Of a DNA stretch of 48,639 bases, positions 2,946-48,639 are shown piece by piece (the first letter of the stretch is position 1; the number at the start of each line of letters is the position of its first letter). Both the position numbers and the translations under genes were made by a program. A model generated the notes under the pieces. The model ran no database searches and was not told the origin of the DNA. It saw only the letters and a program-made list of their open reading frames with translations. The DNA is from a virus (taxonomy: Duplodnaviria > Caudoviricetes): IMG/VR virus record IMGVR_UViG_3300012943_000685, positions 1 to 48,639 of that record; one strand, given 5' to 3'.

Positions 2946-5393
2946 TCACACCGCGAAGCTATATTTCCAATCCACCGTACTGCCATTGGCGCGCATGTCT
3001 TCGATCATCGCGGGCACCAGGGCGGAAAGTTTTTCGCTCACCGGCTGGTTCAGCGCCATCGCGCCAAAATAGACGCCGATATATTCGCCCGCCCACGTCT
3101 TCGCGAAAGTATTATTCGGCGCGAGTTCGGCCCATGTCGTCACTGGCGTGGCGGTGAGAGTCCATCCGTCACCCGCCTTCGGCGCACCGTTCAGCGTGAA
3201 CGAAAAGCCGTTACCCTTTCCGGGGTCCGGCTCACCATACTGCTTTGCCACAACGCCCTTGGTGAGGCGCCCACCAGGCGACGCGATGGAAAAATTCGTA
3301 TCATCCAACATCAACAATGTGTGCTCGCCAATCTCACTGCGATCACCCAGCAAGCCCGGCCAGCCGCAGAAGACGAGGTTCTCCACCACACCTGTTCCGG
3401 TATTGTCGACATATTCGCCGCAAGACGCATTGGCCCCCGCGATATAATACCAGACAGGTTTGTCGGTGCAGAAGCCGGAAGCCGGATCGCGCCGCGCAAT
3501 CAGTTGTTTCGCGCGCCACTCGAAAATCTCCTGCCAATCGGCAAAGCGCCCGCTGCCCACCATCATGCCGAACACCTGCGCGAGAAAGTCCTCCTGCCAT
3601 GAGCCGAAGCCGTTTTTATGCGGGCCGGATGAGAAGACGCTGGCCTTGATGGTGGTACCATGCACAAAATTCTCGATCAGAAAATCACGATTGCGATCAA
3701 GGACCATCTTCCAGAACGCTGTCGGCAACAGCGTCGGATCGTCGATGTGCAGCGATGCGAAATAGCAGAACACCACAGAGCGCAGCATCCACGCATAAGC
3801 GCGTTCTTGCCCGTAATCGAGCACAAAAGATTTGCCGCCGAATTTCTTTTGCCACGCGGCGCGCAACGGATCACCATCCCCATGCTCGGCGCCGAGATAG
3901 AAATTGGTTTGATACATCAGCTCCCGCACATGGTGCGGATCACCGGTCAACATGAACGGCACATAACCAAGGCAAGGATGATGCGCATCGTCCGGCATGA
4001 TAAATTCAGGATAAGCCCTGTCGGATTTCATCACATAGAGCGGCGGCTTTGAGTTCGCGCTGTCAAACAAATTCGCGGTCGGCACGGCGCTGAAATCGTA
4101 CATGCCGAGATTCGCATTATCCAAATGCCACGGCCCAGTGCCCGATGCTTCGGCCCACATCATCATGGACCGATAAGAAGCCGCATCGCGCTGGCCCAGG
4201 TAACGGCTGGTGCCTTCCGGGTTCACCCCGAAATCGCCGCGGCCGCCCGTTTGCCCCATGTAGGGCGTCAGATTGGAAATGCGCATCGGCGCATAATCAC
4301 TGGCCTGTGCGGCATTGATGGTGGTGAACGGATTGCGCGCATAGGCAGGAATGAACCCTTGCGCGACCAGTTCATCCACGCTGCGAGCCTGAGGCCGGTC
4401 AGATGTCGCGGCGCGCCATTCGGCCAGCCAGAAATGGCAAGGAATATCGAACCGGCCAAGAGATTCCTCACCCGCAAACATTTCCGCGGTATAAGCGCCC
4501 ATGGTGGCAGGCGCGTCATTGCTGGGGTCGCCATAACGCAGCGTGATTTCCACCCGGTCGCCATCGACACCAAAAAAAGCGCGCCACAACCCATCAGGCG
4601 AAACCGCGCACGCGCGCAATTGCGCGATACCGGCAAAACCGACCACGGACGAATGCACAACGCCAGTCTCAATACCGCGCAGGACCAACGGCTCCGCACC
4701 GTCACGCATGATGTGGACAGATAAATCGGCAATCTGCACATTCGCCCCAAGCGATGGCACCGCCAATTTCGGGATGATCTGCCCGGTCGAAATGGGCGCG
4801 GCGGGGTCATCAGATGCGGGCGGTGTTGGTGTCTTTGGCGCGGATGGCGCGGAGACGGCGGGCATTGTGCCTTCTGGCAACGGCACAGGCTGTTCAGGCC
4901 AGACTTGCGTGGCCGCCTTGGCATTCGCGATGTAGAGCGCGATGCAGCCGGTGAGATTGATGGCCTTCCCGGTGGCGTGTGTCTCTTGAAAGACCGGGGC
5001 GCCGGTCACTGGATCATCGGCCTTGCGCTTCCACCAATCGGCGCTGCTGCCGTTCTGGACGAGCACAATGGTGTTGCCGGTGCCGGGCTGTTCAGCGTTC
5101 TTGTCCGCAACTGTGATGCGCACGACATTGACCACGGGCGCAACGGGATCGAGTTCCGGTTCGGCCGGAACAGGATCAACAATGGGCGCCGGATCGTCGG
5201 TCACGGGCGTGGTGTCGGACGGCTGATCACCAGACGGATCGCCGTCATCGGTATTGCCGCCACCATCTGCCGGGAGCGGGTCAGCCTGTCCCGTATCCGC
5301 CGGTGCCGGGTCCGTTACGACCGCATCCACGAAAGCGACAAAGGCGTCGGCCAGCGCGCGCGCCAAATTCATTACTTCTTCGTGCGATTTCAT
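2946..5393 (-). CDS. Large post-lysis cargo protein with Pro/Asp linkers and a probable alpha/alpha-toroid (polysaccharide lyase-like) C-terminal domain
   Basis: 815 aa; motifs YMGQTGGRGD, DDAHHPCLGYVPFMLTGD, QERAYAWMLR, SWQEDF; fold is inferred. Confidence 0.7.
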   Translation of the reverse strand: MKSHEEVMNLARALADAFVAFVDAVVTDPAPADTGQADPLPADGGGNTDDGDPSGDQPSDTTPVTDDPAPIVDPVPAEPELDPVAPVVNVVRITVADKNAEQPGTGNTIVLVQNGSSADWWKRKADDPVTGAPVFQETHATGKAINLTGCIALYIANAKAATQVWPEQPVPLPEGTMPAVSAPSAPKTPTPPASDDPAAPISTGQIIPKLAVPSLGANVQIADLSVHIMRDGAEPLVLRGIETGVVHSSVVGFAGIAQLRACAVSPDGLWRAFFGVDGDRVEITLRYGDPSNDAPATMGAYTAEMFAGEESLGRFDIPCHFWLAEWRAATSDRPQARSVDELVAQGFIPAYARNPFTTINAAQASDYAPMRISNLTPYMGQTGGRGDFGVNPEGTSRYLGQRDAASYRSMMMWAEASGTGPWHLDNANLGMYDFSAVPTANLFDSANSKPPLYVMKSDRAYPEFIMPDDAHHPCLGYVPFMLTGDPHHVRELMYQTNFYLGAEHGDGDPLRAAWQKKFGGKSFVLDYGQERAYAWMLRSVVFCYFASLHIDDPTLLPTAFWKMVLDRNRDFLIENFVHGTTIKASVFSSGPHKNGFGSWQEDFLAQVFGMMVGSGRFADWQEIFEWRAKQLIARRDPASGFCTDKPVWYYIAGANASCGEYVDNTGTGVVENLVFCGWPGLLGDRSEIGEHTLLMLDDTNFSIASPGGRLTKGVVAKQYGEPDPGKGNGFSFTLNGAPKAGDGWTLTATPVTTWAELAPNNTFAKTWAGEYIGVYFGAMALNQPVSEKLSALVPAMIEDMRANGSTVDWKYSFAV

Positions 5394-33653: not shown

Positions 33654-33902
33654 TCACCAGTCGATGTCGTCCCACATATTTTCTTCCGAAAGCTCGGCTT
33701 GGATCGCCTTGAGCATCTTTATTTGCTCGTCGATTAATTCTTTAAGTTCCGGTTTTAGGGCGGGCGGCACGTTACTCACCCCTGCTCCATACCGCTTCAC
33801 CGTTTTCAATGATCGGTCCAGTTTGTCCGCAATGATGCGCGCCCAGGCCCGCCCGTATAGCGCTTTGCCGATGCGTTGAAATTCCAGCCCGGTCAGGATC
33901 AT
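33654..33902 (-). CDS. Small HTH DNA-binding protein
   Basis: GKALYGRAW...ADKLDRSLKTVKRY..G...VP; ATGA-coupled to the methyltransferase. Confidence 0.75.
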   Translation of the reverse strand: MILTGLEFQRIGKALYGRAWARIIADKLDRSLKTVKRYGAGVSNVPPALKPELKELIDEQIKMLKAIQAELSEENMWDDIDW

Positions 33903-35335
33903 CCCCAAATTTTCCTTCCGTCCTTCCACACCCGAAGAATGATGGTGTTGCAGTTTGTGCCAGATGCCGAGAAAGAACCGGGTGGCAGGTCGCGCCAGTT
34001 CGCCTGCATCTTCTCCATGAGCGCTCGGAACGCGATGGATTTCCGCGTCTCGCGAAATTCAGTTCCAGCCGACATGATCGCGCAGAGAAACCCATCCGGC
34101 GCCAAGAATTTCAATGCATGGATCACATGGTCTATGTCCCGCTCGCGGTCGAACGGCGGGTTCATCACGATGCGGTCATAGAGCCCGGTCGGAGACGGAA
34201 CGAGATGGAGAAAATCGACATTCCAGACCTTGCCATACACGCGGGCCGACATGAGCATCGCCGCCAAGGCGGGCTGTATCTCGACGCAATCGACTTGAAC
34301 CCTCGGCGCAAGGCATCGGCGCGCCAGATTTCCGGTCCCCGCGCTTGGCTCAAGAACGCGGAGCGGTGGGCCTCTGTCAGGAGCATCTAACTTGGCGTCT
34401 TCGATCAGCCGGTCGGCCGCCGCATCCGGCGTCGGAAAGAACCCGTACCGCTTGGCGGGCGTCAGCTTTGGATCGTAGAGCCCACCGTCGTCTTCCGGCG
34501 GCTTCTGGTCGGAAATGGGCGCGCCATAATATTCGCCCAGCAGAAGGTTTACTCGATCCACGAGGTCATCGCGCTTGAACCAGAGGTGAACATTGCCGTT
34601 TTTGTAGGCGCGGATCAGGAAATAGTCTGTGTCGATTTCAGTCTGGCGTGCACCCCATGTGCGGCCACGCGCCTGCTCGATGGCGTGAACTGCGGTAAGG
34701 TTTATGGCCCGCCCCCCGTCAAGCACGCGGAAGACCCGCTCCACATCCGAAATCGTGTCCCGATGGTTGGAATAATGGTTCCAAAATCCATGGTCATCGA
34801 AAACGCGGGTGAGCACCACGCGGCTGCCAATCTTCCAGCCGTCATGCGAGCGAAAGCGCCGGTCCAGGTTGGAGAAGCACTCGGCCATGCCCCGTTTGAA
34901 GATCGTGCCCACATCGGCGGCGAACTGCTGAAGCGTGGCGCACACATTCTCAACCGTGACCTCCGGCGGGTCGTCGATAAGCTGCTGGTTGAATTGATCC
35001 TTGGCCTTTTTGTCCATCAACCGTTCGAGTTCGGTCAACTGCACGATGTGAGACCACACATCGGTATCGACGATGCGCCGCGCCGTTTGGACATAAGTGT
35101 CGCGCGCAGGCAGTTCGAGCGCCGTGTGAAACTCTGCCTTGTCAAGGTGCCGGTTGTAGCGGTTGACGCCCGGCGACGCTGCGCGCGATGCCTTCCCTGC
35201 CTCCTCAATGGCTTCGACTGCGCGCGACAGAGCGGTGTGCGCCTCGCCGAAAAGGGACAGCGCGCGGTTTCGGCGCGTCACCAGTTCCTCAACGGTGGCA
35301 CGCGGCATCAATTCCGTTCCGGGCGAACTGGTCAC
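33899..35335 (-). CDS. DUF4942-domain N6-adenine DNA methyltransferase
   Basis: YKNGNVHLWF, FFPTP, VLEPSAGTG, MNPPF, FSASGT; GTG start overlaps the upstream stop. Confidence 0.9.
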   Translation of the reverse strand: MTSSPGTELMPRATVEELVTRRNRALSLFGEAHTALSRAVEAIEEAGKASRAASPGVNRYNRHLDKAEFHTALELPARDTYVQTARRIVDTDVWSHIVQLTELERLMDKKAKDQFNQQLIDDPPEVTVENVCATLQQFAADVGTIFKRGMAECFSNLDRRFRSHDGWKIGSRVVLTRVFDDHGFWNHYSNHRDTISDVERVFRVLDGGRAINLTAVHAIEQARGRTWGARQTEIDTDYFLIRAYKNGNVHLWFKRDDLVDRVNLLLGEYYGAPISDQKPPEDDGGLYDPKLTPAKRYGFFPTPDAAADRLIEDAKLDAPDRGPPLRVLEPSAGTGNLARRCLAPRVQVDCVEIQPALAAMLMSARVYGKVWNVDFLHLVPSPTGLYDRIVMNPPFDRERDIDHVIHALKFLAPDGFLCAIMSAGTEFRETRKSIAFRALMEKMQANWRDLPPGSFSASGTNCNTIILRVWKDGRKIWG

Positions 35336-35862
35336 GCGCGCCTCTTTGCCTTCTCGACCACGCTCAAATCGCATTCCGGCAGCCGGATCATGACAGTGCC
35401 CTCGGTCGCGACGAGGGCCTCGCCCTTCACGCTGGAGATCAGCATCCCTACATAGCCGCGGAACAGGTCGTGCCGGTCAATCCGAACTTCGGTGCCGGGC
35501 GCGATGCCCTGCGTCACCAATCTGACCCGGCGGGACGCGGCCTCGACCTCATCGTCTTCGATCCGGCGCAGCGAAGGCACGACCGAGGCAGGCACGGCGC
35601 GGGGCCTGCCGTCCCGATTGCAGAACAGTTCCTGCACGCCGCGGGTGTTGCTGATCGGTCCGTGCTGCTGCTTCGCCACGTCAAACGCGACAAAGGCATA
35701 GGGCGCGAGCCGAAGCTCGGTCACGATGAAGCTGCGCTTGCCCAGCGTCTCCCGCCGATAGGATTTCGGCACATAGACCCGGAAGCCTTGCTCGGTCAGT
35801 CCGCGCCGGGCCAACAGATCGAGCCCCGGTTTGCTCCGGTACAGATGCCAGTTCTCAGCCAT
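35332..35862 (-). CDS. NusG/RfaH-like transcription antiterminator (late-gene regulator)
   Basis: NGN domain (WHLYRSKP, GFRVYVP, PYAFV, NTRGV) plus KOW (PGTEVRI....FRGYVG). Confidence 0.85.
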   Translation of the reverse strand: MAENWHLYRSKPGLDLLARRGLTEQGFRVYVPKSYRRETLGKRSFIVTELRLAPYAFVAFDVAKQQHGPISNTRGVQELFCNRDGRPRAVPASVVPSLRRIEDDEVEAASRRVRLVTQGIAPGTEVRIDRHDLFRGYVGMLISSVKGEALVATEGTVMIRLPECDLSVVEKAKRRA

Positions 35863-44685: not shown

Positions 44686-45413
44686 GCCGCGGACCGGGGT
44701 TGTATGAGCGTGAAAACCCGACCACATGCGGCTACAATCCGGGCGACTGAAGCCAACAAGGGAGTGCGAAACCATGCGAAATGGGCAACGCGTAACGCCG
44801 ATGAAATGCGAATATGTGGACGCAGCGCTGGGGCAGACCGGTGGCGAAGCGCTGATCCTTCTGAGCCCCAAAGTGAAAGGCTCTTCCGCGAACCCATCCC
44901 CGTTCGCGATAGATTTGGCCTGCGCGCGGTTTCTGGCCTCGAAGCTTCAAGACCTAATCCGGGAAGCCGAACAGATGGAATGAGTGTCGTCGCCCTGCCC
45001 GCCTCGCGTAAATTTGGGCAGTCAAGCGAATGATGGCGAACGGGTTGCCTGTTTACAAAGATTTGAACTGCGCGAGGCCGATGCTCAAAGAGCACGCTAC
45101 GGTTCCCGACATCCACACACATGGAGGGGGAACCAATGAGAATTACAGTGGACCGAGCCGCAATAGAACGGCGCGCAATGAGAATGTTGATTTTAGGCTC
45201 GTTCGCGGCAGCGCGCAAAAGACATTCGCCGCGTTGGTGTCGCGAGCGATTGGTTGGACCAATCGTCGAATATCTGCGCACCCACCCGGCTCCTGTGTCC
45301 GGCAAGATAGAGACACTTCCCGTGGTCCGACTTGGCCGGGAGGAAGCAACGCACATCCTTGCCGACCATTGCCGAGCATGTGCGGGGTGCGATTTTGCTC
45401 CGAGCTGAATCAT
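44682..45413 (-). CDS. Cro-coupled 243-codon ORF antisense to two + strand genes
   Basis: ATG overlaps the cro stop; its stop overlaps the next ATG; Arg/Ser-rich product. Confidence 0.35.
   Translation of the reverse strand: MIQLGAKSHPAHARQWSARMCVASSRPSRTTGSVSILPDTGAGWVRRYSTIGPTNRSRHQRGECLLRAAANEPKINILIARRSIAARSTVILIGSPSMCVDVGNRSVLFEHRPRAVQIFVNRQPVRHHSLDCPNLREAGRATTLIPSVRLPGLGLEASRPETARRPNLSRTGMGSRKSLSLWGSEGSALRHRSAPALRPHIRISSALRVAHFAWFRTPLLASVARIVAACGRVFTLIQPRSAA
44774..44983 (+). CDS. Antisense small hypothetical protein
   Basis: RBS GGGAG; beta-beta-beta-helix pattern FAIDLACARFLASKLQDLI. Confidence 0.6.
   Translation: MRNGQRVTPMKCEYVDAALGQTGGEALILLSPKVKGSSANPSPFAIDLACARFLASKLQDLIREAEQME
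45136..45408 (+). CDS. Antisense small protein with a C-terminal Cys cluster
   Basis: RBS GGAGGGGG; HCRACAGC; stop 1 nt from the cro stop. Confidence 0.6.
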   Translation: MRITVDRAAIERRAMRMLILGSFAAARKRHSPRWCRERLVGPIVEYLRTHPAPVSGKIETLPVVRLGREEATHILADHCRACAGCDFAPS

Positions 45414-45667
45414 GCGGCAGCCGAATTGGAGTGGATGCGGCGCAGAACGGGGATATCGGAATTGTTGGCTTCGGCCAGCGGGCCGACCTTCACACCGGTT
45501 GCGTCGAAGATTCGAAGCGCCAACCCTATTGAGACACGCGGTGAGCCATCCACGATCCGACCAATATGGACCTTCGTGCAGCCAACAAGGCGGCCAAGAT
45601 CTTCATGGGTTTTGTCGTGGACCTTCAGCCAGTCACGAAGGTTGGTAATTTCGGCCGGTTCGCTCAT
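45410..45667 (-). CDS. cro: Cro-like HTH repressor
   Basis: LRDWLK....THEDLGRLVGCT..HI.RI..G; divergent from cI. Confidence 0.85.
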   Translation of the reverse strand: MSEPAEITNLRDWLKVHDKTHEDLGRLVGCTKVHIGRIVDGSPRVSIGLALRIFDATGVKVGPLAEANNSDIPVLRRIHSNSAAA

Positions 45668-45675
45668 GGCCGACA

Positions 45676-45729
45676 CTAGTAACATGGGGTGTACTATCAG
45701 CGCAATATCAAAAAACACCCCATGTTACG
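45676..45729. promoter_or_regulatory. OR operators and putative PR promoter
   Basis: GTAACATGGGGTGT at 45679-45692 and inverted at 45715-45728; - strand TTGCGC-N18-TACTAG. Confidence 0.8.
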
Positions 45730-45762
45730 ACGCCCGACATACGCTGCTTTAAAGTGTTGACC

Positions 45763-46107
45763 ATGGGCAAAAAACAGAAAAATCAGGAAAAGCTTCAGTT
45801 TGAGCCAATCGCCTTGCGGTTGGACGAGTGGCGTGAGCGCGCTGGGCTGAGCCGGGAAGAGTTGGGGGCACGCATCAACATGACCAAGGTGTCTGTCGGG
45901 CGCATGGTCAACGGCAAGCAGAATTGGAACCAAGAAGCGCTCCAACTCGCGGCTCAAGTCCTTGGCGTCGACTGGGCAGACCTTTTAACCGGGACGGGGA
46001 ATGGGGGCATTTTGGATGTTTGGGCGAAAATCCCGCCCGAGGATCGCGAGCGGGCGCTCGGCCATCTCAAACTCTACATTCGCGAAGCCGAAGAAAGCGT
46101 GGCGTAG
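45763..46107 (+). CDS. cI: CI-like XRE repressor without an S24 autoprotease domain
   Basis: LDEWRERAGLSREELGARI......VGRM.NG......L..AA.VLGV...DLL. Confidence 0.88.
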   Translation: MGKKQKNQEKLQFEPIALRLDEWRERAGLSREELGARINMTKVSVGRMVNGKQNWNQEALQLAAQVLGVDWADLLTGTGNGGILDVWAKIPPEDRERALGHLKLYIREAEESVA

Positions 46108-46130: not shown

Positions 46131-46553
46131 ATGAAGTGCGCTTTTTGCCTTGAGGAAATGAACGATGGCGCCAGCGTTTGTAAGGTGTGCGCGCGGACGC
46201 AGCCGGTCATCGGAGAGGTTACAGAAAAACGTCGAAATGACCTGATATTCTATGGTTTAGGCGCCACCATAATCGGGATTGTCGTCGTGGGCGCGATTTG
46301 GTTGATCTCCGATTCATGGGCCAGAGAGCATACCGTCAACAAGATCGTAGATTGTTTGCATAGCAAAGGGGACCGCGACGCCTCTGCGAGTTTCGTGAAT
46401 TTTGAAATCGACGATGCGATGAAACAAACGGGTAAGGGATGGCGTGCCAGCCTCGTCATGGCGGCAATGTTTACCACGAAATACTTCAGCCCGCAGTTGG
46501 GGCTTTGCTACCTCAGGCCTGACAATATTATCAGCGAGATGAAAGGGAACTGA
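46131..46553 (+). CDS. Zn-ribbon plus single-TM membrane protein, co-oriented behind cI
   Basis: RBS GAGGGGG; CAFC-x10-CKVC; TM LGATIIGIVVVGAIWLI. Confidence 0.85.
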   Translation: MKCAFCLEEMNDGASVCKVCARTQPVIGEVTEKRRNDLIFYGLGATIIGIVVVGAIWLISDSWAREHTVNKIVDCLHSKGDRDASASFVNFEIDDAMKQTGKGWRASLVMAAMFTTKYFSPQLGLCYLRPDNIISEMKGN

Positions 46554-46708
46554 TCAAAGCGCGGATATACTATCTCGGATCTAAGCGTCCCCTGCCGTAA
46601 CCATCACCGGTAACAGTTGATTGGTAGTAAGGGGGGGCGCGCTGATAATCACTTTGCAACTTTTGATATTTTAAGTATCCCCTGTGCAGACATGTAGAGG
46701 GGGCCGAT

Positions 46709-47563
46709 CTGAGCGAAATTGGAATAGAGCCAACAAAGTGGCCGCACGCCCCAAGAGGTCCGTGGATAAGCAATTTCCCCGACCTGATTGCCCAGTGCCA
46801 TTACAATCGGATGTTTCACCACCCGGCTTATCGGGCGGCTAAATCTGGCGCCAGCGCCGAGTCGGCCCACACTTTGGTGTCAGACTGCATCGCTGACGCC
46901 CAGATGGACCGGATCACAACCTTTTTGAATGGGCGGCGGCCCAGGGTTGTAGGCGTCCACTCGGAGGAATCTGGTGGCCGCAATAAAATCCCCACCATGT
47001 ATGCTGAAGTTTTGGCTGGAGTCCTGAATCTGGACACAGACCCGGGTATCGTTCAATCGACAGTGGCAAACCACTCCGAAGCGCCGTCTATTTATCATCG
47101 CTTTGTTTCTCCACCACTTTTTGATGGCTACGTTGAACCTGGGGCGGATTATCTGATCGTTGATGACACCTGCACGGCAGGCGGAACCTTGGCAAATCTG
47201 AAAGGATTTATTGAAGCTAGCGGGGGTAGGGTTGCAGGAATGTCGGTGCTGGCACTCCCAAATGTCGCGCTCCGGTACGAGATTTCGCTGGCCCAACCGA
47301 CACTCAAGCGTCTAATGATGAGGCACCCCAGTCTGGGTGCATACTGGATGGAGGAATTTGGTCATGACCTCGAAGGTCTCACAGAAGGGGAAGCGGGACA
47401 CCTTCTCAGCGCCCCGTCTTTTGACACCATCCGAAATCGGCTCACTGAGGCGCGACGCGATTGCGACCTCGCAAGAAGCGAAGCGGCTCATAGCCGAGCG
47501 GTCGAAACGTCAGAAGAACTCGATCAATGCGTTGATGAATATCCCGGTTCAGATGGCGGCTGA
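46709..47563 (+). CDS. Type I phosphoribosyltransferase-fold protein (probable CTG start at 46709; first ATG at 46811)
   Basis: PRPP-binding loop LIVDDTCTAGGTL; HPAYRAAKSG, GRNKIP; frame open from 46667. Confidence 0.85.
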   Translation: MSEIGIEPTKWPHAPRGPWISNFPDLIAQCHYNRMFHHPAYRAAKSGASAESAHTLVSDCIADAQMDRITTFLNGRRPRVVGVHSEESGGRNKIPTMYAEVLAGVLNLDTDPGIVQSTVANHSEAPSIYHRFVSPPLFDGYVEPGADYLIVDDTCTAGGTLANLKGFIEASGGRVAGMSVLALPNVALRYEISLAQPTLKRLMMRHPSLGAYWMEEFGHDLEGLTEGEAGHLLSAPSFDTIRNRLTEARRDCDLARSEAAHSRAVETSEELDQCVDEYPGSDGG

Positions 47564-47567
47564 GTAG
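47364..47567 (+). CDS. Nested +1-frame small basic helical protein overlapping the PRTase 3' end
   Basis: GGAGGA at 47350-47355, 8 nt before the ATG; 67 aa containing RLLTPSEIGSLRRD. Confidence 0.55.
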   Translation: MTSKVSQKGKRDTFSAPRLLTPSEIGSLRRDAIATSQEAKRLIAERSKRQKNSINALMNIPVQMAAE

Positions 47568-47622: not shown

Positions 47623-47800
47623 GTGGCCCCTGCAATCGTTTGCAACGGCCTGCCCGGGTGCCGGTAGCGGTGCCGCCACGCCCTGGTGGTCACCGCCCCC
47701 CTTCCTAAGACTGGGATCAGACGAAAGCCGCGGCCTAGCTTGCCTCACACCCTGCCGATTCCCGGTCTTGGAAGTGTTTACAGATCTGACTTAGAAAAAA

Positions 47801-47853
47801 GTAACATGTGGTGTTCTTTTGGCTTGCGCGCCAAGTAACATGTGGTGTACCTT
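47801..47853 (+). promoter_or_regulatory. OL operators and putative PL promoter
   Basis: GTAACATGTGGTGT at 47801-47814 and 47835-47848; TTGCGC-N18-TACCTT. Confidence 0.8.
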
Positions 47854-48346: not shown

Positions 48347-48639
48347 TGGCCGATCATATAACTAAGACCTTCATGCACCGCTTCCGCTCTTGGCTGCCGG
48401 AGGTTGAATGCAAACGCTGGACGAATCCTGACGGATCAGAGGGCGCAATCGTTGCGCTGACCGCGCGGATTTCGGCCGGTATCACGCTCAAAGCAAGCGT
48501 TGAAGTGATGGCGGATGCGTCCATCGGCTCCCGCGCGTCCATCGGCGACGGCGCGTCCATCGGCGACGGCGCGTCCATCGGCGACGGCGCGTCCATCGGC
48601 GACGGCGCGTCCATCGGCGACGGCGCGTCCATCGGCGAC
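48346..48639 (+). CDS. Hexapeptide-repeat (left-handed beta-helix) protein, truncated by the window edge
   Basis: TGATG-coupled start; MADHITK...WTNPDGSEGAIVA...ASIGSR-(ASIGDG)n; absent from the ORF track because there is no stop. Confidence 0.85.
   Translation, partial: MADHITKTFMHRFRSWLPEVECKRWTNPDGSEGAIVALTARISAGITLKASVEVMADASIGSRASIGDGASIGDGASIGDGASIGDGASIGDGASIGD
48517..48639 (+). repeat. 18-bp tandem repeat GCGTCCATCGGCGACGGC
   Basis: One degenerate, five perfect and one partial copy running into the sequence end. Confidence 0.97.

Follow-up and report, generated by a model that had tools for sequence, protein, structure and literature searches.

The immunity region of a lambdoid phage genome

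The DNA analyzed here (the window, 48,639 nt) is a complete record and represents the genome of a lambdoid temperate phage, with matches to terminase, portal, capsid, and tail proteins. Its immunity region encodes a PRTase of the KfrC/polyvalent-protein type on the cI strand, with a 140-aa ORF 5′ of it, a terminator-like hairpin 3′ of it, and an operator-like cluster on each side. A second ORF, in the +1 frame, overlaps the PRTase gene at its 3′ end. The features of the region are as follows:

45410..45718, minus strand: cro-like HTH gene, divergent
45677..45728, no strand: operator-like inverted repeat between cro and cI
45754..46107, plus strand: cI-like HTH repressor, upstream of the PRTase on the same strand
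46131..46553, plus strand: 140-aa ORF between cI and the PRTase, with CxxC pairs and a hydrophobic stretch
46697..46703, plus strand: Shine-Dalgarno (SD)-like GAGGGGG before the CTG start (from sequence; -11.1 kcal/mol)
46709..47563, plus strand: KfrC/polyvalent-protein-type PRTase, 284 aa from the inferred CTG start
47162..47170, plus strand: DDT motif (D152-D153-T154), the motif that was also mutated in RA3 KfrC
47350..47355, plus strand: SD GGAGGA of the +1 gene, within PRTase codons M214-E215-E216
47364..47567, plus strand: +1-frame overlapping gene, 67 aa; likely antitoxin or inhibitor
47421..47501, plus strand: conserved core of the +1 product (residues 20-46), LTPSEI.SLR motif and amphipathic helix
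47592..47617, plus strand: terminator-like hairpin closing the cassette (consensus match only)
47799..47853, no strand: two more operator-like copies beyond the hairpin, so that the cI-orf-PRTase cassette is bracketed

In phage lambda, the slot between cI and the left operator, which the PRTase takes here, is occupied by the accessory genes rexAB. The 140-aa ORF (46131..46553) matched no family above threshold; with its CxxC pairs and membrane-like stretch, it could be a trigger for the cassette or an unrelated accessory gene. The hairpin lies where the earlier note on this DNA had placed a terminator shortly after the +1 ORF, although terminator-like sites are at chance frequency in the surrounding region; a promoter-like site (46621-46649) is also at chance level. 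Elsewhere in the window, a 491-aa protein (33899-35374, minus strand) has DNA-methyltransferase-like PHROG matches, and an ORF at 48530-48639 ends in tandem 18-nt DGASIG repeats and runs off the window end.

The PRTase

The PRTase consists of a type I PRTase core (approximately residues 24-195) followed by a family-specific helical extension that carries the overlap, with the stop codon at 47561-47563. The predicted structure has a confident type I PRTase fold (pLDDT 89.6) with the DD motif at D152-D153, and its best structural match is ComF (7p0h_A; Z 11.8, rmsd 3.0, 155 aligned). R131 is invariant in the alignment of relatives; for the PRTases of polyvalent proteins, a conserved Arg common to ComFC has been described in the loop after strand 2 (PMC5512222). 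The window protein is homologous to MuF-fused and polyprotein forms as well as to KfrC, and it is 38% identical over 238 aa to KfrC of RA3 (E 3e-44). It shares the DD motif with the polyvalent-protein PRTases, which likewise occur in solo and MuF-fused forms on proteobacterial prophages and conjugative elements, and whose role has been called enigmatic (Iyer et al., 2017; PMC5512222); the main text of that paper contains neither “overlap” nor “frameshift” (0 occurrences of each), and the passages concerned describe no partner. The KfrC proteins of RA3 (IncU) and RK2 (IncP-1alpha) (PMC8124265) have in common with the window locus a 38% identical N-terminal PRTase, the DDT motif, and a +1 ORF, whereas the tails through which KfrC binds KorB and VirD4 are absent from the window protein.

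The gene plausibly starts at CTG 46709, because a conserved R.PW..FP motif sits upstream of the first ATG; relatives start with ATG (44), TTG (12), or GTG (10) (n = 66). The earlier note had contrasted a weak CTG start with a strong internal ribosome-binding site and read this as antitoxin-like stoichiometry. The codon is indeed weak, but its SD is strong (-11.1 kcal/mol, compared with -9.3 for the +1 ATG), and the stoichiometry argument is modest, with the SD of the +1 gene better than that of the PRTase in 42 of 66 solo genes. In four of 13 loci scanned (L002, L005, L083, and L084), a close relative of the window PRTase has an IS1595-family transposase as its neighbor, which suggests transposon cargo; a locus search for the distant homolog P0077 found none.

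An overlapping gene in the +1 frame

The ORF begins as the earlier note described, with GGAGGA (47350-47355), an 8-nt spacer, and ATG at 47364, and after an overlap of 200 nt its stop codon (47565-47567) ends 4 nt beyond the PRTase. The window sequence alone gives weak evidence for a gene: the open +1 frame has p = 0.034 under synonymous recoding, and 11 GGAGG-N5-10-ATG sites occur in the phage genome. Searching with the single 67-aa sequence recovered nothing but the query, and no named family was identified for the peptide in Pfam, PADLOC, PHROGs, NCBIfam, or the ESM Atlas (Atlas hits under 0.9); no RNA holder was among the results listed.

Among relatives, the openness of the frame greatly exceeds chance expectation. 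A total of 241 loci were collected (the best 80 kept from each alignment scan), which with the window gave 132 sequences below 80% identity. Against a synonymous null drawn from each gene's own codon usage, these sequences have 0 stops in the +1 frame at PRTase codons 219-250, compared with 161.5 expected, whereas control codons 10-200 have 981, compared with 993.7 expected; the +2 frame is not open in the same 132-sequence test. The pair L224-T225 alone accounts for 0 stops compared with 87.8 expected, and the same L-T pair at 181-182 gives 108 compared with 80.7. Codons that are otherwise rare are fixed in the overlap (GCT, 1.0 vs. 0.16; CGA, 0.79 vs. 0.13), and wobble entropy falls to 0.74 bits across codons 235-250 (12 columns), compared with 1.81 bits (125 columns; p 1e-8), with wobble positions frozen in the LTPSEI.L core. 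Constraint is divided between the frames, such that frame 0 dominates at codons 224-232, which encode the variable N-terminus of the peptide, and the +1 frame dominates at 238-248; L20 of the peptide is invariant, whereas the frame-0 residue at that position has an entropy of 1.9 bits.

A start codon for the +1 ORF is present in 131 of 131 scorable sequences (median product 63 aa), and its SD is better than at control out-of-frame ATGs. Two start sites are used nearly exclusively of each other: 91 sequences have the family-type site at codon 206/207, 21 have the window-type site at codon 219, eight have both, and 11 have neither. The window's clade, whose members are not independent of one another, is without the ATG at codon 206/207 and uses codon 219 with a stronger SD. 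An internal ATG just upstream of the core (62 sequences) was considered as a start and rejected because its SD is worse than that of controls.

The +1 ORF is intact in 239 of the 241 loci (238 by script, with L012 found intact on inspection). In L012 it is intact even though the PRTase has a premature stop; of the two exceptions, one is cut by the contig end (L089) and the other has a single indel that breaks both genes (L007). The row of L007 is misframed by this indel and was kept as one of 124-132 rows in the stop, start, model, profile, and covariation analyses. Conservation extends down to approximately 29% enzyme identity, across elements from alpha-, beta-, gamma-, and deltaproteobacteria. 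A scan of viral sequences with the motif only gave 13 matches, comprising eight in the +1 frame of a PRTase, one orphan (stand-alone) copy, and four judged to be chance, and a profile search with the peptide found 1201 representatives at E<=0.001; this profile was built from 123 of the 241 loci, so that matches there are partly circular, which the stop counts are not. The conserved LTPSEI.L motif and the suppressed synonymous variation that the earlier note had predicted for PRTase homologs were thus both found, and the interruption of the frame in close homologs, which it had named as grounds for dismissal, was not. With a frame open beyond the synonymous null, constrained wobble positions, and a conserved start with an SD, the comparative sequence data indicate that the +1 ORF is a real gene under purifying selection on its core and not a chance ORF.

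At their C-termini, 14 of 124 +1 products end in -AA, compared with 3.2 expected; this ending may act as a ClpXP degron. The window product itself ends in AAE (47553-47567), as do 11 of 124 products, most of them in the window's clade.

KfrC plasmids and polyprotein forms

The +1 ORF accompanies the PRTase across contexts, including solo genes, IS cargo, kfrC, and virion polyproteins. Polyproteins make up 36 of 131 loci, 47 of 129 have the +1 ORF contained entirely within frame 0, and the ORF is also intact inside giant phage polyproteins. Three loci depart from the usual arrangement: in L248 (2421-2601), a MuF_C polyprotein matches the PRTase only at the C-terminal overlap stretch, and its +1 ORF is intact; in L136 (558-1751), the +1 ORF extends into a GmrSD_N domain (398 aa); and in L041 (5602-6672), it extends into a PNP_UDP_1 domain (357 aa). 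The core occurs twice in tandem in nine of 150 listed representatives (P0083, P0090, P0105, P0124, P0153, P0178, P0198, P0199, and P0208).

The plasmid homologs of the PRTase are annotated as kfrC. RA3 kfrC contains a 53-aa +1 ORF with a GGAGGT SD and an ATG at the equivalent codon, at RA3 position 4311, and an IncP kfrC contains a 56-aa +1 ORF, which is identical over the RP4-sized record CP152306. The kfrC of IncP-1beta (L251:677-1330) has neither the PRTase domain nor the +1 ORF.

Published experiments on RA3 kfrC, which is treated as a single ORF in the parts of the paper concerned, where neither an antitoxin nor a reading frame is mentioned, bear on the function of the pair (PMC8124265). 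Overproduction of KfrC inhibits growth, and changing DDT to AAA abolishes the inhibition (PMC8124265, section 2.3); overproduced full-length KfrC remains toxic even though its +1 ORF is intact. The truncation kfrC1-249 could not be cloned under tacp, and this cut removes the last 11 of the 53 residues of the RA3 +1 product. The cloning failure is suggestive only as a sign of antidote loss, because 42 of these residues are retained, the truncated gene was obtained in pBGS18 and in CyaA fusions, and no +1 prey was reported from the two-hybrid screen (22 clones; PMC8124265); three “KfrC” clones of that screen start at 4307, which by arithmetic is frame 0. Deletion of kfrC worsened filamentation in Escherichia coli and improved retention in C. 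necator (PMC8124265); these phenotypes are host-dependent and do not all fit addiction.

Stand-alone copies

A plasmid search with the IncP +1 product yielded one stand-alone copy, and a search with that copy yielded 139 records, from which seven further records were chosen for the absence of a PRTase annotation. In all eight of the plasmid loci fetched, the ORF is intact, there is no PRTase match, and stops occur in the would-be PRTase frame. The cores of these orphans are located as follows:

L252: 1259-1432
L255: 1668-1916
L256: 1103-1348
L257: 1207-1395
L258: 303-551
L259: 665-913
L260: 2151-2300
L261: 2483-2668

Seven of the carriers are whole plasmids of 2.6-4.1 kb, and the eighth was examined over 5 kb of 352 kb. 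The ORF starts three to four codons before the core in the seven small plasmids and nine codons before it in L261. Neighbors on the small plasmids are mobV, mobC, or rep genes, and the orphans are unannotated in seven of the eight records. The start of the L252 orphan overlaps the stop of a DUF4160-DUF2442 pair. A further orphan (L264:2462-2632, on the same contig as L275) is part of a 10.8-kb element with a P4-alpha-like primase, and its nearest relatives (82-83%) are the +1 ORFs of phage polyproteins.

Since stand-alone copies without a PRTase exist, the peptide likely acts in trans. Residues 20-46 comprise most of the predicted interface residues (see below) and are the portion retained by the orphans; as these copies keep only the core, the core alone would likely be the functional unit. 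The claim of the earlier note that overprinting makes the two genes hard to separate therefore requires qualification, in that the peptide has escaped as a stand-alone gene, while IncP-1beta plasmids have lost both genes together.

Predicted structure and complex with the PRTase

The +1 peptide is predicted to have a flexible N-terminus and one helix (residues 22-58), with hydrophobic peaks at residues 20, 25, 28, 35, 39, and 42. A DNA-binding domain for autoregulation is common, not universal, among type II antitoxins; the +1 product has one long helix, and no Pfam family recurs among its 124 members.

The model of the PRTase/peptide complex scored 0.93, compared with 0.00 for the best of three controls; the mark used is reached by 116 of 157 solved complexes and two of 215 mismatched pairs, a calibration that is rough here, with our own alignments. 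Runs agree in >=87% of contacts, and the partner pLDDT is >=68. Peptide residues 15-46 are predicted to pack on PRTase residues ~84-140, near the invariant E87, N92, Q116, R131, and G140, in an interface that avoids the DD loop; most of these contact residues are encoded well upstream of the overlap.

Complex prediction had been proposed in the earlier note as a check, and its outcome is divided: the model is favorable, but covariation in the alignments used is confounded by shared DNA. In a first pass, 17 of the top 25 inter-chain pairs were at the interface, compared with 4.3 expected, yet the controls gave 13 of 25 for frame-0 residues and a mean of 9.3 (maximum 14) for near-neighbor swaps. 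In 45 rows where frame 0 had ended, 4 of 15 pairs were at the interface, compared with 2.6 expected. The strongest pair is explained equally well or better by the residues that the same DNA encodes in frame 0 (Z 8.2 vs. 6.7), and the +1-specific excess is modest (p 0.016). Because the last helix of the PRTase, encoded by the same DNA, adjoins the predicted surface, and because frame 0 explains the top pair, we consider binding of the peptide to the PRTase to be supported by the model, not established.

Inferred function and alternative explanations

We infer that the +1 product is probably an out-of-frame intragenic antitoxin, which is predicted to bind the PRTase and would likely neutralize it. 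The gene at the 3′ end of the PRTase would have its own ribosome-binding site for translation, and its helical product would bind and neutralize the enzyme, so that one stretch of DNA would encode both a toxin and its protein antidote. The window enzyme would be toxic via PRPP-dependent chemistry, by analogy with the 38%-identical KfrC, the homolog for which toxicity is published. The lysogen would express the pair from the slot flanked by cI and the left operator, and decay of the small partner would release the enzyme, leading to prophage maintenance or abortive defense. The antitoxin interpretation gained support from the complex model, the orphan copies, and the published catalytic toxicity of KfrC (PMC8124265).

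The peptide could instead bind the PRTase as an adaptor, chaperone, or activator that localizes or loads it, which we regard as unlikely. An interface that spares the DD loop and the toxicity of full-length kfrC with its ORF (PMC8124265) are consistent with such a role, for which there is an example in E. coli, where an out-of-frame microprotein (GndA) relocalizes its host-gene product (10.64898/2026.10.22.760973); however, protection more readily explains orphans on enzyme-free elements, and the truncated kfrC with its clipped peptide proved harder to clone rather than easier. Slightly less probable still is a real peptide that merely travels with the enzyme and has another target, such as a host factor or the transfer or packaging machinery. 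The position of orphans beside mobV/mobC or rep genes and the confounded covariation would fit this, but 239 of 241 PRTase loci carry the peptide regardless of context, it was lost together with the enzyme in IncP-1beta, and the complex score far exceeds that of the controls.

If ribosomes entered the +1 frame by frameshifting to make an alternative C-terminus, or if translation of the frame acted only in cis, the opening of the frame shortly before the core would be accounted for, and in 36 of 131 loci the shift would cut a polyprotein short; a dedicated ATG with an SD better than at control ATGs, a start that relocates where the first ATG is missing, and the existence of stand-alone genes make this very improbable. 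That the ORF is a mere shadow of conserved PRTase residues, as the single-window p-value and the part of the N-terminus that shadows an LTExEA motif might suggest, we count as refuted by the invariant L20, the fixed rare codons, and the orphans.

A broader interpretation concerns transfer between cells, and we offer it tentatively, as possible but rather doubtful. PRTases fused to head proteins or tethered to the conjugative coupling protein might be delivered as protein and poison the recipient unless the incoming DNA brings the antidote; the overlap would let the domain shuffle into any polyprotein with immunity attached, and hitch-hikers such as tiny mobilizable plasmids and P4-like satellites would have captured the antidote against the poison of their helper. 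This is based on the MuF fusions, the binding of VirD4 by KfrC (PMC8124265), the orphans on 2.6-4.1 kb MOB plasmids, and the satellite-like orphan. The solo copy in the window would be the resident version of such a system.

Comparison with known systems

The arrangement resembles the Rpn intragenic antitoxins, in which one gene lies within another and is read from an internal start, the short helical product binds the longer one, and additional stand-alone copies occur (10.1101/2023.05.02.539157; PMC10400984). However, RpnS is in frame and shares its sequence with the C-terminus of a PD-(D/E)XK nuclease, whereas the product described here is read out of frame and has no sequence relationship to its host protein, which has a PRTase fold; because the product is out of frame, the pair is not a member of the Rpn family. 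The nearest out-of-frame precedent is GndA within gnd, to judge from the parts of the source concerned: it is likewise a microprotein with an amphipathic helix that acts on the host-gene product, but the host gene encodes a housekeeping enzyme and the role is one of localization, not that of a toxin-antidote pair on mobile elements (10.64898/2026.10.22.760973). PRTase folds also serve as toxins or effectors in ShosTA and related defense systems (PMC11961720; 10.1101/2025.09.30.679545), and ShosT is a weak Foldseek match to the window PRTase (E 2.2e-4, TM 0.32). ShosT differs in having added pyrophosphatase activity, and its type IV antitoxin, ShosA, is a separate protein that binds DNA (PMC11961720). 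The partner here is a 67-aa helix, and no PADLOC model matches. As far as the sources cover them, ShosTA and Ophion have only the fold in common with the window PRTase.

Phage Rz/Rz1 are nested lysis subunits in which the product of a +1 gene binds that of its host gene; neither these nor rexAB are homologous to the window genes. No overlapping ORF in kfrC or in polyvalent PRTases was found in the openly accessible literature searched, and none is described in the parts concerned of PMC7414963 and a Synechocystis preprint.

The +1 ORF is a real and widespread overlapping gene, apparently undescribed, and likely a nested antitoxin. If so, it would represent a naturally occurring antitoxin encoded out of frame within the toxin gene, of which no case was found in the literature searched, and it would give a testable function to the enigmatic PRTase domain of phages and plasmids. 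Experiments on kfrC of RA3 and RK2-type plasmids handled two genes as one, and the phenotypes of overexpression, truncation, and deletion therefore need rereading. The orphans point to an unrecognized conflict between helper elements and hitch-hikers; given these copies, either frame may have overprinted the other in the last helix. Even if it is not an antitoxin, this is an unusually well-supported bacterial overlapping gene, which is incompletely listed in the annotated records examined: in some cases the peptide has been called as a gene and labeled a hypothetical protein, and in one phage record the annotation covers its tail alone.
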